From: a virus
Virus genome (UHGV): UHGV-0311442
Length of the DNA: 64,000 nucleotides
Strand: one strand, 5' to 3'
The notes beneath the pieces are model-generated. The model worked only from the letters and a program-made list of their open reading frames with translations, did no database searches and had not been told where the DNA came from. The position numbers and the translations under genes were made by a program. Shown here piece by piece: positions 16,298-22,805 of this stretch (position 1 is its first letter; every line of letters begins with the position of its first letter).

Positions 16298-17332
16298 TTA
16301 CACCGCGACAGGCATGGCGATGTGCGGGTGTGATTGGTAACCGACTACTTCAAAGTCCTCGTATTTGTAGTCGAAGATAGATTCGGGTTTACGTTTAATA
16401 ACCAATTTAGGTAACGGGTACGGCTCACGAGTCAGCTGGAGTTTTATTTGATCGAGGTGGTTCAGATATAAATGCACATCGACTCCACTATAAACTAACT
16501 CATCGGGAACCATATTCAATTGTTGGGCAACCATATGAGTTAGCAGAGCGTATGACGCGATGTTGAACGGTTTTCCTAATGCGACATCGTTGCTCCGCAT
16601 CATGTAAAAACATGAAAGCTTACGGCGTGGAATACCTTCACGATCTAAAGTTTCATGAAGACGTTCTTCATCATCAATATCTTCGTGATTAATAAGTGGT
16701 GCGTTCGCAAATTTTTCCGGTTCATTTGCTTCGTACCAATCCAGTCGCTCAAGCAGTGTCATTTCCGTTGTGTAGAATTGGAAATAGTTGTGGCATGGGT
16801 TAAGTGCCATATCGTCCAGGTCACCTACATTCCAGGCACTAACAATAATACGTCGGGAGTCAGGGTCTTCACGAAGTTGCTGGATAACTTTGCTGATCTG
16901 GTCATGTGCTTTCTCATAGACCAAATACGTCGTACCATCTTCCTTCATATTCCCAATATACTTGTAACCCCGCTGCATTAGTTGTTGTGTACGTCTTACG
17001 TCATGACACTCCACAACTTTACAGTCACGCCATTCGCGCCACTGTTTACCATAAACTGGTCCTAAGTTCCCCTCTTCGTCACTCCATTCGTTCCAAATTT
17101 TTACCCCGTTCTCTTGCAGGTACTTCACGTTAGTGTCACCATTTAAGAACCACAGCAGTTCATGAATGATACTTTTCAGGTGAACCTTTTTCGTAGTAAC
17201 TAATGGGAAACCTTCTTTTAGGTCGAAACGTAGTTGGCGACCAAATACAGAAAGTGTCCCTACGCCTGTACGGTCTTTCTTGACAACACCGTTATCCAGA
17301 ATGTCTTGCATTAATGCTAAATACTGTTTCAT
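16298..17332 (-). CDS. thyA: Thymidylate synthase (ThyA family) with two insertions
   Basis: Track ORF of 344 aa. Near-identical blocks to E. coli ThyA: [60 protein letters not shown] (catalytic Cys), [41 protein letters not shown]. Confidence 0.93.
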
Positions 17333-17640
17333 TAGATTTTGTCCTTTTCGAGTTCAGTTAAAATTTCAAACAGGTCTGCGTTGGATTGCAGTACGATTTC
17401 ACTGCCTTCTGCTACAACGGTAATTGAAGGCTTCTTACCACGTAGTAAGAACTCCCAACGCATTGTTCTTACGTGGCTGTCAAGTAACTGTTTTAATTTG
17501 TGGTTAACTTCAACTTCCAATTTGCCCAGTAACTGTGGTGTAATGCTTTCACCTGAGTTTTTGTTATAAAGTGTACGCACTAAAGAACGTAAAGAATAGC
17601 CAATGCACTGCGAAATTGCCCAACCCGAATAGTTTTCCAT
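17332..17640 (-). CDS. Hypothetical protein
   Basis: Track ORF of 102 aa. Its stop overlaps the thyA start (TAATG), giving operon packing. Confidence 0.6.
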
Positions 17641-17641
17641 G

Positions 17642-18187
17642 TTAATCCTTCAAAATGTCTTTAAGTTTTAGTTTTGTATAGAACGGAGAACTACTTAGTT
17701 CTTCTGTCCAACTTATACGTCCGTTCTGTAGAACCCGGTCGAAGATTAGGCCGTTCATCTTTACAATTCTGGCCAATTGATAAAAGAGCGTCGCGAGATG
17801 TAGACGCCGCTCCATTTGTGCGCGAGCGGTACAACTTCGTACCGCTTTGATAGCAAGTACCGCTTCTGGCATCAACGTAACCGCGATTGACTCAGGATGT
17901 TCGTTTTTCCATTTCTTAATGGCTAGTAGTCGGTGTAGCGATTTTTCAAGGGGACGTAAATCCCCGTTATTCATCACGTAAACTAGAGCAGCAATATCCC
18001 ACAAGGCGATACCCACCGCTTTAGCAACAAACAACCCGTCGTGTGTTGTCGTGGACTCACAGACTTTGCCAATACTTCCATAAACACGTGCAGTCCATGC
18101 GTCTGTCTGTTCGCCAGGTTTTATACCCGCGTTATCCAGAAAGTGTTTAAATGCATTAACGTGATCAGTTAACTGTATTTGTTTCAT
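17642..18187 (-). CDS. Hypothetical protein
   Basis: Track ORF of 181 aa, tightly packed in the minus-strand operon. No motif recognised. Confidence 0.6.
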   Translation of the reverse strand: MKQIQLTDHVNAFKHFLDNAGIKPGEQTDAWTARVYGSIGKVCESTTTHDGLFVAKAVGIALWDIAALVYVMNNGDLRPLEKSLHRLLAIKKWKNEHPESIAVTLMPEAVLAIKAVRSCTARAQMERRLHLATLFYQLARIVKMNGLIFDRVLQNGRISWTEELSSSPFYTKLKLKDILKD

Positions 18188-19184: not shown

Positions 19185-19224
19185 AAAAAATGAAAATACC
19201 CTACTCCTGTCTAGGAGTAGGGTA
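19185..19224 (-). terminator. Rho-independent terminator (minus strand), CCCTACTCC hairpin family
   Basis: Stem taccctactcct/aggagtagggta with loop gtct. The minus strand continues ttttcatttttt. Confidence 0.75.
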
Positions 19225-19228
19225 GGTG

Positions 19229-19888
19229 TTACATACGGGTAACTGAATCCCAGTAATCGCGAAGATATTCTTGATCCTCAGGATCTTTCGGTGTAGCCGG
19301 AATGTGGCCGTCAAACTCAAACGGAATTACAGACAGAACATCCGCAATCTCGTAACGCTCGACTTCCAGTTCAACTTTCACCCAGTCACCGACGCTGGTA
19401 CTACTACGCATCTCGGTGAGGAGATCGTTAAAGTCACCCGAAACTTCAATTGCGGGGTGTCCGGTGGTGATACTGAAAATATCAATATCCCAATGCTTAG
19501 CACCTTTATCGGCTAATTCGCCCGGTTCTAAGTGGATACGCTTCACCAGGTGCGCCAAATAACCGTCCTTGTAAAAAGAGAGTGCAGAACTAATACCGAT
19601 ATCCGAATTCTCTTCAACCTTTCCGTCCAGGAATTTACGCTTAAGCGTTAGCTGTGCTGTACCGTCTTCTTTAATACGGATACGGCGACGCCCGCCTTCT
19701 ATCGGCATGAGGATGTCCATGAACATCTTAGTGGACTGTGCGTGTAGCCAATCCCATCCCGCTTGCGTAGGTTTAACCCAGACGCAATATTCCTTTTCCA
19801 CTTCGCGTTTAATGGATTCGCCCGCAACGCGAATAACCTCTTCTTCCTGCGCTTTTTCCAATTGCGCAAGGGTATCGAATAATCCCAT
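19229..19888 (-). CDS. CYTH-like (triphosphate tunnel metalloenzyme-like) protein
   Basis: Track ORF of 219 aa. By-eye CYTH pattern: N-terminal ExExK (REVEKEY, nt ~19783-19806), RRRIRIKEDGTAQLTLKRK, KHWDIDIF, and C-terminal alternating Glu strand WVKVELEVE (cf. E. coli YgiF EIELKF...LRIRG...MTMK...ELELEL). The start overlaps the stop of the upstream gene (TAATG). Confidence 0.45.
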   Translation of the reverse strand: MGLFDTLAQLEKAQEEEVIRVAGESIKREVEKEYCVWVKPTQAGWDWLHAQSTKMFMDILMPIEGGRRRIRIKEDGTAQLTLKRKFLDGKVEENSDIGISSALSFYKDGYLAHLVKRIHLEPGELADKGAKHWDIDIFSITTGHPAIEVSGDFNDLLTEMRSSTSVGDWVKVELEVERYEIADVLSVIPFEFDGHIPATPKDPEDQEYLRDYWDSVTRM

Positions 19889-20709
19889 TAGATTAATCCC
19901 ATACTTTCACTGACGCTCGTAATGTCGAACGTTGTGTCGTTAAAGTCGATGTTTTCTACAATAGAAACCACCAGATTAGGAAGCCATTCCGAATGGGGTG
20001 GTGTAATAACCCGGCCGTTCATAACGTAGTAATGCAAGAACGGTAATCCCATCGAATGGCAGTACGATAACACATTACCTAAGCAGCTTCCGTCAAACTT
20101 CAAGAGTCGGAGCTTACGCAATAATGCGTTTTGAAATGCACCGTTCGCGTAATTGCTAAACTCGCCAGGCCGATAATCCGTGCCCCCGTAGATACTCGCC
20201 TTTAATCGACGACCGTGTTGTATACATTCAGCCCCAGTCAGGGTGCGTAATAAACGGATGTCAGGATATTCAGTTTCCAAACGACCCAACGCGTTTATTC
20301 CGTAGCCCTTGTAGAACAGATAGTCTACGATCCTTAAATAATGATAGTAGCCTTCTAACGTTAAAAACTGACCATGTATCGTGTCGAATTTCGCACCGTT
20401 AGGTTGCGCGTAGAAGTTACTGATCATTTTCCCTACGGTAGTACGACCGTTAGAGTAAAGGTTAAGATGGTTGATACCATCGGTAAAAGGGAGTTTTTCG
20501 GGTAACGCACAAACGTAGCCTAAACGACGAAGGTATAGGACATAAACAAAGCGCTCATCAGGAGTAAGCACGATGTTTGACGCGTTAACGTATCCATTAG
20601 GATTATTTCGCCCAGGTTGATAACCCAGCGTTAATGCCAGAGCGTGATTGTCTTCGCCCTGACTTTTGATCTTCTTTAATACGGAACGCAGTAATTGTGG
20701 TTCGGACAT
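19888..20709 (-). CDS. NADAR (YbiA/DUF1768)-like domain protein with an ~85-aa N-terminal extension
   Basis: The track ORF starts at a TTG at 20730. I prefer the ATG at 20709 (MSEPQLL...), 6 nt after AAGAGG and clear of the upstream stop. LNLYSNGRTTVGKMISNFYAQPNGAKFDTIHGQFLTLEGYYHYLRI aligns by eye with E. coli YbiA INFYSTSDDYGDFSNFAAWPIKVDGKTWPTSEHYFQAQKF. Confidence 0.5.
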   Translation of the reverse strand: MSEPQLLRSVLKKIKSQGEDNHALALTLGYQPGRNNPNGYVNASNIVLTPDERFVYVLYLRRLGYVCALPEKLPFTDGINHLNLYSNGRTTVGKMISNFYAQPNGAKFDTIHGQFLTLEGYYHYLRIVDYLFYKGYGINALGRLETEYPDIRLLRTLTGAECIQHGRRLKASIYGGTDYRPGEFSNYANGAFQNALLRKLRLLKFDGSCLGNVLSYCHSMGLPFLHYYVMNGRVITPPHSEWLPNLVVSIVENIDFNDTTFDITSVSESMGLI

Positions 20710-20719
20710 AACCGGCCTC

Positions 20720-21994
20720 TTAAATAGCAAAATAGTCTTCCACGATTTTATCGGTAGACTGGTAACTTACACTGCCCGCAGCAATCACGTAATTACGTTT
20801 CTCAGTGGTCAGTAGCGCCTGAATCGCATTTACGCCTGCATAGGTGTAAAGTTTAAGTTCAGTCATTTCCGGCGTGATGTTTTTCGCTTTGTCCCACTTT
20901 GCATCTAATCCTTTAAATAGCGTTAATAGACGAGTACCATACGTTTTGAAACTGACACCAGGTTCAACCCGTAGGTTAGCCATGAGGTTCTGGATAACGG
21001 TGGCTGCGATCTGGGTCCCTTGTCCCGGTTGCAGTTTATCCAGATAGTATTCCGTTGAATCGAGATTACCTGTCGCTGCCGCCTGAATCATCAACTCGCC
21101 GTACAGTACCTCTTTCGCTTGTGCATCAGTAATCGCTTGAAGCATCGGCTCAATTTTAGCCGGTAAACCATAACTGTTCAGTTTGGTAGATAGGCCATAA
21201 ATCAGCGCTGAAGAGGTATTAATGTCTAACGTGGAGAAACTGTCGCTGCCTTTAAAGCTGTTAATCAGGTTATCGATGGCTAAGAAGTCGTCTAAGTCTT
21301 TGTAGCTGTCGAAAGTATGTTGTACGTCATCAACGATCGAGGTGATTTGATAACGCATACTGTTGACTTCAGACATAAACCCGTTGACTTCTTGGCTAAC
21401 TTCCGAGGGGAGTTTAGCCAGTTGCCCAGCAATGTTCATCGTCCCTTCGAGACGTTTTTTCACCGAGTTAAAGTCAGTACCGATACCTGATAAAACAGAG
21501 TCGGTTAAGCTGCCGATGCTGTCCCACCCTTTACCTAACAGCTTCCCCATTCCACCTGGACTTAGGTAGTCTAACGCCTTTAGACCATCTTCATCCTTTT
21601 TCTTAAAGGGTTCAGAAACGTCACGCTTTTGTGGGTCGAGGACAGGAAGCGTTTCTTTGGTGTTAGATGCAAAACCGGGAACCTTTTGTCCTGGCGACAC
21701 CCCCGAGGCTGAACTCCCCGCAGTCTTAGTTCCCCCAACACTGGCGGTATCACTACCGCCAAAAAGGTTACCAATTTTGCTGGTCAGCTCGTTACCACCG
21801 CTAAGCAGTTTGTTGAATGTTTCACCAGCACGTTCTGATAATCGGTTGACGTTATCGACCGTGTTCTTAATACCACGCTCCGCATTTTCCACCGTTGTTT
21901 GTACGCGGTTTGCGGCGTTCTTTGCCGTATTAACGGAATTATCGATTGCCGACTGACCTTTATTTATCTGACTGGTTATTTGGTCGATTTTCAT
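20720..21994 (-). CDS. Hypothetical protein with a repetitive helical N-terminus
   Basis: Track ORF 20720..22021 starts with TTG. The ATG at 21994 (MKIDQITSQ...) lies 6 nt after GGAG. The N-terminus has repeated N/V/A-rich helical segments (NSVNTAKNAANRVQTTVENAERGIKNTVDNVNRL). Confidence 0.55.
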   Translation of the reverse strand: MKIDQITSQINKGQSAIDNSVNTAKNAANRVQTTVENAERGIKNTVDNVNRLSERAGETFNKLLSGGNELTSKIGNLFGGSDTASVGGTKTAGSSASGVSPGQKVPGFASNTKETLPVLDPQKRDVSEPFKKKDEDGLKALDYLSPGGMGKLLGKGWDSIGSLTDSVLSGIGTDFNSVKKRLEGTMNIAGQLAKLPSEVSQEVNGFMSEVNSMRYQITSIVDDVQHTFDSYKDLDDFLAIDNLINSFKGSDSFSTLDINTSSALIYGLSTKLNSYGLPAKIEPMLQAITDAQAKEVLYGELMIQAAATGNLDSTEYYLDKLQPGQGTQIAATVIQNLMANLRVEPGVSFKTYGTRLLTLFKGLDAKWDKAKNITPEMTELKLYTYAGVNAIQALLTTEKRNYVIAAGSVSYQSTDKIVEDYFAI

Positions 21995-22805
21995 TCTGGT
22001 CTCCAATTTGGTATTCGTCAAGGTTTACCGTGACCTGAACTTCGTAGATTTTATTGTCTTTCTGACGCCTTAAAGTCAAAAGGATTTCGAAACTACGAAC
22101 ATCAATTGCCTTGAGTACCCTCATAAACCATTTCCAGGAAAACTTCTTTTTTAACCTTAGATTGTGCTGCATGTTGTGTCGCAAATCATTTCGTTTCGAC
22201 GGTGTTTGCTCACAGTTAGCAGGATCGTTAACGAAGTTTGTGGAAAGACGGTACCACCAGTCCGCATTCATTTTCATGTTTGCGAAGATAGTCCAAGTTA
22301 ACCGAGATAACGGATGTACCATCATCTTTGCGGTCTCACCACAGTTCTGGAAATAACGGTTCAGTTGCGCAGTTGCAGACTCTTTAGGTCGTTCGTCGTT
22401 ATCTTCGAACAAATCCCGAGCGAGATCTTCACGCACGCGTGTGGTAATTTCAGATACGGTTTTTGTTTTGAAGTGTCCTCGGTAAGTGGTTACACAAATC
22501 CGCAGTGTCTCCACTCCGGTAATCACCAACCCTTCTGTAAAACCTCGCCAGGTAAGATCGACAGGTAGTGCAGGGATGTTACCTGAACTCAGCTTCGTGG
22601 AGATACGTTGTATTCGATCGTCCATCGTTGCTTTTGAACGTGTTTTAAATTCTGGAGACAGAATATGTTTGGCGACGGCGAGTTTATAATCCGAAGGCTT
22701 CCATCCGATCAATTCTTTATAATTCCAATATAGTGTTTGAAGTGGTCCGCCTGCACGTTCGTCTTCAGCGTCCACGACCACACTTACTTTTTTGCTATCC
22801 ATCAC
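21960..22805 (-). CDS. Hypothetical protein
   Basis: Track ORF of 281 aa with an ATG-ATG start after AAGGTG. Its 3' end overlaps the next gene by ~35 nt. Confidence 0.55.
   Translation of the reverse strand: MMDSKKVSVVVDAEDERAGGPLQTLYWNYKELIGWKPSDYKLAVAKHILSPEFKTRSKATMDDRIQRISTKLSSGNIPALPVDLTWRGFTEGLVITGVETLRICVTTYRGHFKTKTVSEITTRVREDLARDLFEDNDERPKESATAQLNRYFQNCGETAKMMVHPLSRLTWTIFANMKMNADWWYRLSTNFVNDPANCEQTPSKRNDLRHNMQHNLRLKKKFSWKWFMRVLKAIDVRSFEILLTLRRQKDNKIYEVQVTVNLDEYQIGDQNENRPNNQSDK

Follow-up and report, generated by a model that had tools for sequence, protein, structure and literature searches.

A gene on the minus strand of UHGV virus genome UHGV-0311442, which we analysed as one stretch of 64,000 nt (hereafter the window), encodes a 219-amino-acid (aa) protein that, as modelled, adopts the triphosphate tunnel metalloenzyme (TTM, or CYTH) fold in a very divergent form specific to phages. 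We propose, with a probability of roughly 0.6, that this protein is a two-metal triphosphate phosphohydrolase that is packaged in the capsid, matured by a protease, and ejected together with the genome and the virion RNA polymerase. An initial annotation, made from the letters of the window, had placed an open reading frame (ORF) of this length at 19229..19888; it is present there with an ATG start, on a strand that the annotation had left unstated. The four peptide strings quoted from it are likewise all found in the translation, namely REVEKEY at residues 28-34, RRRIRIKEDGTAQLTLKRK at residues 67-85, KHWDIDIF at residues 131-138, and WVKVELEVE at residues 169-177.

19229..19888, minus strand: coding sequence of the 219-aa TTM/CYTH-fold protein, with an ATG start and the stop codon at 19229-19231; ortholog of SPN3US gp225

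The assignment to the TTM fold comes from structure prediction. An AlphaFold2 model built on 32 homologous sequences reached a predicted local distance difference test (pLDDT) score of 87.8 and a predicted template modelling (pTM) score of 0.81, is weak for residues 1-30 only, and runs in the order helix 3-21, b1-a-b2-b3-b4-b5-a-b6-b7-a-b8, short strand, and C-terminal helix, where a and b denote helices and strands. This arrangement is an eight-stranded antiparallel beta-barrel tunnel with the canonical order of strands and helices. When the model was compared with the PDB using Foldseek, the top matches were all CYTH/TTM proteins, comprising 3sy3 (E 8.4e-5), 2gfg, NeuTTM, YgiF, VTC, vaccinia D1, and thiamine triphosphatase (ThTPase). 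The CYTH/TTM fold that had been claimed from short motifs is thus borne out by the model and by Foldseek, and the predicted architecture is that of a tunnel. The fold comparison gave the following values:

BH2851 (2gfg): 11.3
PH1012 (2dc4): 10.0
plant TTM3-like (8h92): 10.0
YgiF: 9.2
NeuTTM: 8.7
CyaB (2fjt): 8.3
mimivirus capping triphosphatase: 8.1

Alignment of profiles with hhalign gave a weak match to the YgiF family (E 0.0036 for a single comparison, probability 9%), yet the motifs fall in register. The YgiF homologs used for this profile were too alike one another to give a strong profile, and hhalign against the single YgiF sequence returned a short motif alignment only (RxR...TxK...ExN).

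To describe the putative active site we used a conservation alignment of 23 sequences that are 19-47% identical to the window protein. Nine residues are invariant in this alignment (E31, E33, R69, R71, K83, E92, W133, K171, and E173), five are near-invariant (Y34, T81, R117, D136, and E175), and positions 58 and 134 are acidic in every sequence. The residues fall on the barrel strands as follows:

19790..19798, minus strand: b1 acidic pair E31-K32-E33 (the ExE of 'ExExK'); E31 and E33 invariant to ~20% identity
19676..19684, minus strand: b3 basic pair R69-I70-R71 (RxR); invariant, placed by hhalign onto YgiF LRIR
19640..19648, minus strand: b4 T81-L82-K83 (LTxK); K83 invariant and T81 91% conserved, onto YgiF MTMK
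19607..19615, minus strand: b5 E92-E93-N94; E92 invariant and N94 87% conserved, onto YgiF PEYN
19538..19540, minus strand: b6 R117; 96% conserved
19481..19492, minus strand: b7 W133-D134-I135-D136; W133 invariant, 134 always acidic, D136 96% conserved
19364..19378, minus strand: b8 K171-V172-E173-L174-E175, a putative metal-binding ExE; K171 and E173 invariant, E175 96% conserved

The conserved charged residues on each of the eight main barrel strands are separated by variable ones, which gives an i,i+2 spacing. The basic tunnel residues of a TTM (R69, R71, K83, and R117) and its C-terminal acidic ExE (E173 and E175) are both present, and the acidic and basic tunnel residues, on whose conservation the initial annotation had let its proposal depend, are conserved among the homologs. 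The reading of REVEKEY as the ExExK strand stood in part. Its conserved core is E31-x-E33-[Y/F], which hhalign places with C35 onto E4, E6, and K8 of YgiF, and the lysine of the motif did not stand: its position corresponds to C35 (C/V/S/T/Y across the family) in the hhalign register, which has a probability of 9%, or else to the invariant E33. Relative to cellular CYTH/TTM proteins, the ExExK lysine has thus given way to Cys, Val, Ser, or Thr in the phage family. On b8, by comparison, K171, E173, and E175 fall onto the three glutamates of YgiF ELELE, so that the phage family has an invariant lysine at the first of them. Because b1 and b8 adjoin in the barrel, the ExExK lysine may have moved from b1 to b8.

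The same residues bear on which kind of TTM the protein might be. According to Vogt et al. 2021, three signatures mark the class IV cyclases: an HF four residues ahead of ExExK, replacement of the first RxR arginine by a small residue, and Ala where the b8 ExE otherwise has its second Glu. ThTPases carry W/YxRxR. In the window protein the would-be HF positions are occupied by S25-I26 or, in the alternative register, by G23-E24; R69, the first RxR arginine, is invariant; and E175, the second Glu of b8, is 96% conserved rather than Ala. None of the three published cyclase signatures is thus found, in contrast to CyaB (2fjt). A CyaB-like class IV cyclase was rejected on these grounds. It is accordingly very improbable that the protein acts as a class IV nucleotidyl cyclase, which upon entry would reprogram the host through a cyclic nucleotide. 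ThTPase was rejected as well, as 78% of sequences have R or K at position 67 and none has the aromatic consensus there, unlike the W/YxRxR of the mammalian enzyme (3bhd). Judged by published motif criteria, the protein is therefore neither a cyclase nor a thiamine triphosphatase.

The gene is real and conserved. Its product matches PHROG 7768, a family with function unassigned, over its full length (E 1.2e-96), full-length tblastn matches were found in 62 jumbo-phage records, and 49 database clusters of homologs were identified. SPN3US_0225 (gp225) is the ortholog, as its alignment with the window protein is gapless at 58% identity, the two are of equal length, and they occupy the same, syntenic position. 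When 1.84 billion representative proteins were searched exhaustively with a profile, only 28 relatives were returned, none of which matches Pfam CYTH, and no bridge to cellular CYTH proteins emerged. The distant relatives belong to further jumbo phages (Vibrio pVa-21 and Ralstonia RP12/RP31, for example), and the family was detected in jumbo phages only. Two homologs are already tagged 'CYTH domain-containing protein' by UniRef and JGI.

What is known of the ortholog points to the capsid. SPN3US gp225 is a low-abundance head protein with function unassigned, which Scheuch et al. 2023 (PMC10052503) gave neither a fold nor a function. It is converted from 25.1 to 22.3 kDa when the prohead protease gp245 cuts off a 24-residue N-terminal propeptide at ARE-24, and the logo of this protease is V(P4)-A-x-E/S(P1'), where the slash marks the cleaved bond (PMC10052503). 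A corresponding propeptide, site, and mature domain are predicted in the window protein:

19817..19888, minus strand: predicted N-terminal propeptide of 24 residues (residues 1-24), in which a linker follows an amphipathic helix; coincides with the low-pLDDT region of the model, where helix 3-21 lies
19814..19828, minus strand: predicted prohead-protease site V21-A22-G23-E24/S25, which fits the gp245 logo at P4, P3, P1, and P1'
19232..19816, minus strand: mature TTM domain, residues 25-219, with 195 aa, a computed mass of 22.4 kDa, and an isoelectric point (pI) of about 5.0

At the predicted site the window protein reads R20-V21-A22-G23-E24/S25. Cleavage would thus follow residue 24 in both proteins, with AGE in the window protein and ARE in gp225, and the computed mature mass of 22.4 kDa compares with 22.3 kDa for mature gp225. 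Across the 32 homologs, E24 and S25 never vary and A22 hardly does, and in 31 of the 32 close homologs ExE[YF] is preceded, at a distance of exactly six residues, by [V/A/I]-A-x-E-S. A-x-E is found at a similar place in 12 of 22 distant homologs, and the N-terminal pattern M-[GS]-[FL]-[LF]-[DS] returns even in distant ones. The conserved V-A-x-E-S residues are a predicted protease site that lies outside the active site. The protein therefore has both features expected of a prohead-protease substrate, an A-x-E motif near the N-terminus and orthology to a protein whose presence in heads and cleavage mass spectrometry has shown. By analogy, the propeptide is probably a capsid-targeting peptide that is later removed.

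The internal proteins of phage T4, together with T4 Alt, carry an N-terminal capsid-targeting peptide that is cut by the prohead protease after Glu. In these T4 proteins, as proposed for the phage protein, a short N-terminal peptide ends in a Glu-specific site and the cargo stays in the head until it enters the cell with the DNA; Alt, moreover, is also an enzyme. Unlike the protein described here, Alt is an ADP-ribosyltransferase, with an unrelated fold and chemistry, and the targeting of gp225 by its propeptide is a proposal. Cellular CYTH/TTM proteins differ from the phage protein in lacking the added N-terminal propeptide and its capsid-protease site. Where the initial annotation had treated the TTM protein as a cytoplasmic enzyme, the presence of gp225 in SPN3US heads favours a capsid-packaged one.

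Mass spectrometry of SPN3US recorded 107-120 spectra of gp225 per replicate in wild-type virions and 59-108 in tailless heads, and the same proteomic study found the annotated RNA polymerase beta subunits gp218, gp240, and gp241 in heads (PMC10052503). Expressed per kDa, the spectral counts in tailless heads are 2.7 for gp225 and 2.3-4.6 for gp218, gp240, gp241, gp42, and gp244. The last two of these we take to be virion RNA polymerase subunits. This rough measure indicates a few to a few tens of copies of gp225, like the polymerase. Such numbers bear on whether the protein could be a non-catalytic internal head protein with a TTM-like barrel, as in Med18/Med20, that serves a structural or DNA-organising role. 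Low abundance fits an enzyme rather than a building block, and the nine residues that stay invariant at about 20% identity, eight of them charged and of the tunnel type and the ninth W133, form with their i,i+2 periodicity an active-site pattern for which a scaffold would have no need. We consider a non-catalytic role unlikely.

Our proposal of a packaged phosphohydrolase can be set out as a series of steps. The 219-aa precursor would be made late, in one unit with the homolog of the tail protein gp223, and its N-terminal peptide would carry it into the assembling prohead, where the protease, as shown for the ortholog, would cut after E24. The mature 22.4-kDa enzyme would be kept in the head, in about as many copies as the virion RNA polymerase subunits, and would be ejected with the DNA and this polymerase so as to act before any phage gene expression. 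It is known that related phages inject inner-body proteins and polymerase into an early vesicle, with some head proteins left behind. In the tunnel, two divalent metals would be bound by E31/E33 on b1 together with E173/E175 on b8, and the triphosphate by R69/R71, K83, R117, and K171, and the terminal phosphoanhydride would be hydrolysed, as expected from the family. The enzyme might act on the 5'-triphosphate ends of RNA that the co-injected polymerase has made, on inorganic triphosphate (PPPi), or on a signalling nucleotide of low abundance. As a few injected molecules cannot drain the millimolar pool of nucleoside triphosphates (NTPs), we favour a scarce or local substrate.

One sub-case of this proposal is an RNA 5'-triphosphatase of the Cet1/poxvirus type that acts on the transcripts of the co-packaged virion RNA polymerase. 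In the virion transcription apparatus of poxviruses, the TTM domain of the capping enzyme D1 (4ckb), an RNA triphosphatase, is fused to guanylyltransferase and methyltransferase domains, and the enzyme makes caps, whereas an RNA role of the phage protein is putative, and no capping partner was found for it. We regard this sub-case as doubtful. Equally tentative is a broader idea, that a co-injected TTM enzyme remodels the 5'-triphosphate ends that the first transcripts, or host mRNAs, carry, or destroys a triphosphate-bearing host signal before expression begins, with the relocated lysine marking a subfamily that has a new substrate. If the first of these is true, a phage would carry a 'polymerase plus 5'-end enzyme' package of the poxvirus kind.

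Several observations weigh against the proposal of a packaged phosphohydrolase and have to be set beside the evidence for it. First, searches of Pfam, NCBIfam, and the PDB with phmmer and hmmsearch were empty, whether made with the single protein, with the 32-sequence profile, or with each member separately. The Pfam model PF01928 (CYTH) matches none of the 32 members at E values up to 10 and none of 10 distant ones at E values up to 1. The phage protein thereby differs from BH2851 (2gfg), PH1012 (2dc4), E. coli YgiF (5a61), and Nitrosomonas NeuTTM (3typ), in that it is missed by Pfam CYTH and by all sequence searches. Canonical CYTH proteins themselves scarcely find each other, as exemplified by YgiF against 2gfg (E 0.64). 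Second, no lysine on b1 is conserved across the 23 aligned sequences, so the lysine of the ExExK hallmark is lacking, and we infer from the i,i+2 periodicity rather than from coordinates that the conserved side chains face the tunnel. The phage protein thus has the fold of the CYTH/TTM phosphohydrolases, and would work as they do, while lacking two of their sequence-level marks, the ExExK lysine and recognition by PF01928.

The remaining points on this side concern packaging and delivery. Head location and cleavage were observed in SPN3US gp225, and packaging in the phage of the window would follow by analogy; the prohead protease gene lies outside the 64,000-nt window. Some phiKZ inner-body proteins remain in the head. 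Phages phiKZ and 201phi2-1 are without a homolog (PMC10052503), and the protein is therefore no general requirement for an infection of this kind. The proteins of the family are all acidic (pI 4.5-5.8), which is a mild argument against an extended RNA-binding surface.

The TTM gene closes its gene string directly downstream of a gene that had been called NADAR-like, and the features at this end of the string are as follows:

19888..20709, minus strand: NADAR-fold gene upstream of the TTM gene, encoding 273 aa counted from the ATG at 20709; ortholog of SPN3US gp224
19886..19890, minus strand: TAATG stop/start overlap of the NADAR-like and TTM genes, with the upstream TAA at 19890..19888, the ATG at 19888..19886, and one base in common
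19197..19224, minus strand: intrinsic-terminator-like hairpin from a terminator scan, with a 12-bp stem and then U-rich UUUUCAUUUU; begins 5 nt past the stop codon

The TAATG overlap described in the initial annotation is real. It measures 1 nt as read from the sequence, and the minus strand across the stop/start junction reads ...GGATTAATCTAATG (also given as ...ATCTAATG). The hairpin has a predicted RNA folding energy of -22.1 kcal/mol (z = -4.0), and none of 200 shuffled sequences was equally stable. Since this hairpin and its U-rich run sit 5 nt past the stop codon, the TTM gene closes a transcription unit.

The NADAR fold of the upstream product was confirmed. The protein extends ~75 residues further at its N-terminus, its invariant motifs are SNF, LEGYYH, and HYY, and the Pfam NADAR model fails to detect it; it could counter guanine ADP-ribosylation on behalf of the phage. 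Upstream of this gene, the 433-aa protein at 20720..22021 (minus strand) is the ortholog of SPN3US gp223 (64% identity), with weak PHROG matches to baseplate hub and tail families. One gene string thus holds a tail gene (the gp223 homolog), a non-virion NADAR gene, and the gene of a head enzyme.

This arrangement raises the alternative that the TTM protein is a cytoplasmic enzyme that shares one pathway with the NADAR-like protein, for example in ADP-ribose or nucleotide-signal metabolism. That the neighbour has a NADAR fold, that the genes share one base here but 14 nt in SPN3US and in Asesino, and that they are the last two of a unit ending in a terminator would all fit such a pairing, but the comparative and virion data do not. 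Members of the NADAR-like family were found in 323 records from many kinds of phage, Vi1-like and Vibrio phages among them, and most of these records are without a TTM, as against the 62 full-length tblastn records and a few distant ones for the TTM family. The adjacency is confined to the SPN3US/Erwinia clade. In pVa-21 the TTM gene sits after the DNA polymerase gene and in RP12 it lies among small hypothetical genes, in each case apart from the NADAR-like gene, and in pVp-JHP1101, a relative of pVa-21, the two are ~80 kb apart. While gp225 is in the SPN3US head, gp224 has no entry between gp223, a tail protein, and gp225 in the SPN3US virion and head tables consulted (PMC10052503). Because the adjacency is limited to one clade and the family distributions differ, a linked step in ADP-ribose metabolism, one of the roles suggested at the outset together with a check of co-conservation, is without comparative support. 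Functional pairing with NADAR was rejected on distribution and virion data, and we consider a shared pathway unlikely.

The wider locus relates the window to SPN3US. When SPN3US proteins were compared with the window by tblastn, gp241 to gp217 were found in colinear synteny on the reverse strand, at 36-86% identity, in a stretch that includes the annotated RNA polymerase beta subunit genes gp218, gp240, and gp241. From this synteny we conclude that the window belongs to a distant relative of Salmonella phage SPN3US. A megablast of the locus against 50,697 phage records gave no match, so there is no close sequenced relative in that set. Salmonella Enteritidis assemblies contain 222-226 kb contigs that encode near-identical proteins, and one of the clusters comprises 373 sequences. 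It seems that an uncatalogued SPN3US-like phage travels with Enteritidis isolates, perhaps in a carrier state.

The window has no counterparts of SPN3US gp226-gp228, and four other ORFs (117, 199, 181, and 102 aa) lie between the TTM gene and thymidylate synthase. The segment 17332..19164 (minus strand) is thus a variable island within an otherwise colinear region. Two of its ORFs, at 17642..18187 (181 aa) and 17332..17640 (102 aa) on the minus strand, adjoin and match phrog_10269 (299 positions) at 31-163 and 201-298, respectively, such that the pair at 17332..18187 looks like a split or frameshifted gene.

Some homologs have noteworthy architectures. P0047 and P0068, from Salmonella phages SPFM9, SPFM12, and related phages, contain blocks of the TTM protein in reversed block order, with nine separate profile matches, and look like artefacts of genome records or annotation. 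The 400-aa homolog P0062 (L008 6001..7203, metagenome contig SRR26596551_53272) has an extra N-terminal domain of 180 residues, which corresponds to phrog_10766 (function unassigned) and yielded no functional clue. This domain precedes an internal ...TVAQE/A site, and two protease products would result if the gene call is real.

With respect to previous work, the initial annotation had stated that no such enzyme was described for this phage lineage. This holds insofar as gp225 was published without a function, and does not hold insofar as gp225 is a published head protein, homologs are labelled CYTH, and a survey from 2021 records CYTH triphosphatases here and there among jumbo phages (PMC7824862). 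We found no paper that joins a protease-matured, capsid-packaged protein with a TTM enzyme that has an intact catalytic set, and a literature search for a phage CYTH protein with a defence role gave nothing useful.

Giant phages of the SPN3US group inject dozens of proteins with their DNA, very few of which have a known activity. With the analysis presented here, SPN3US gp225 and its relatives can be assigned a fold, a probable chemistry, and an active site that lends itself to testing, and there is a concrete hypothesis for the first seconds of infection, when the injected RNA polymerase alone is at work. For the CYTH field, the family adds a subfamily that is missed by sequence models and whose hallmark lysine has apparently shifted to another strand. 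Lastly, the 24-residue propeptide with its A-x-E/S site could be a portable signal for loading enzymes into a giant capsid.

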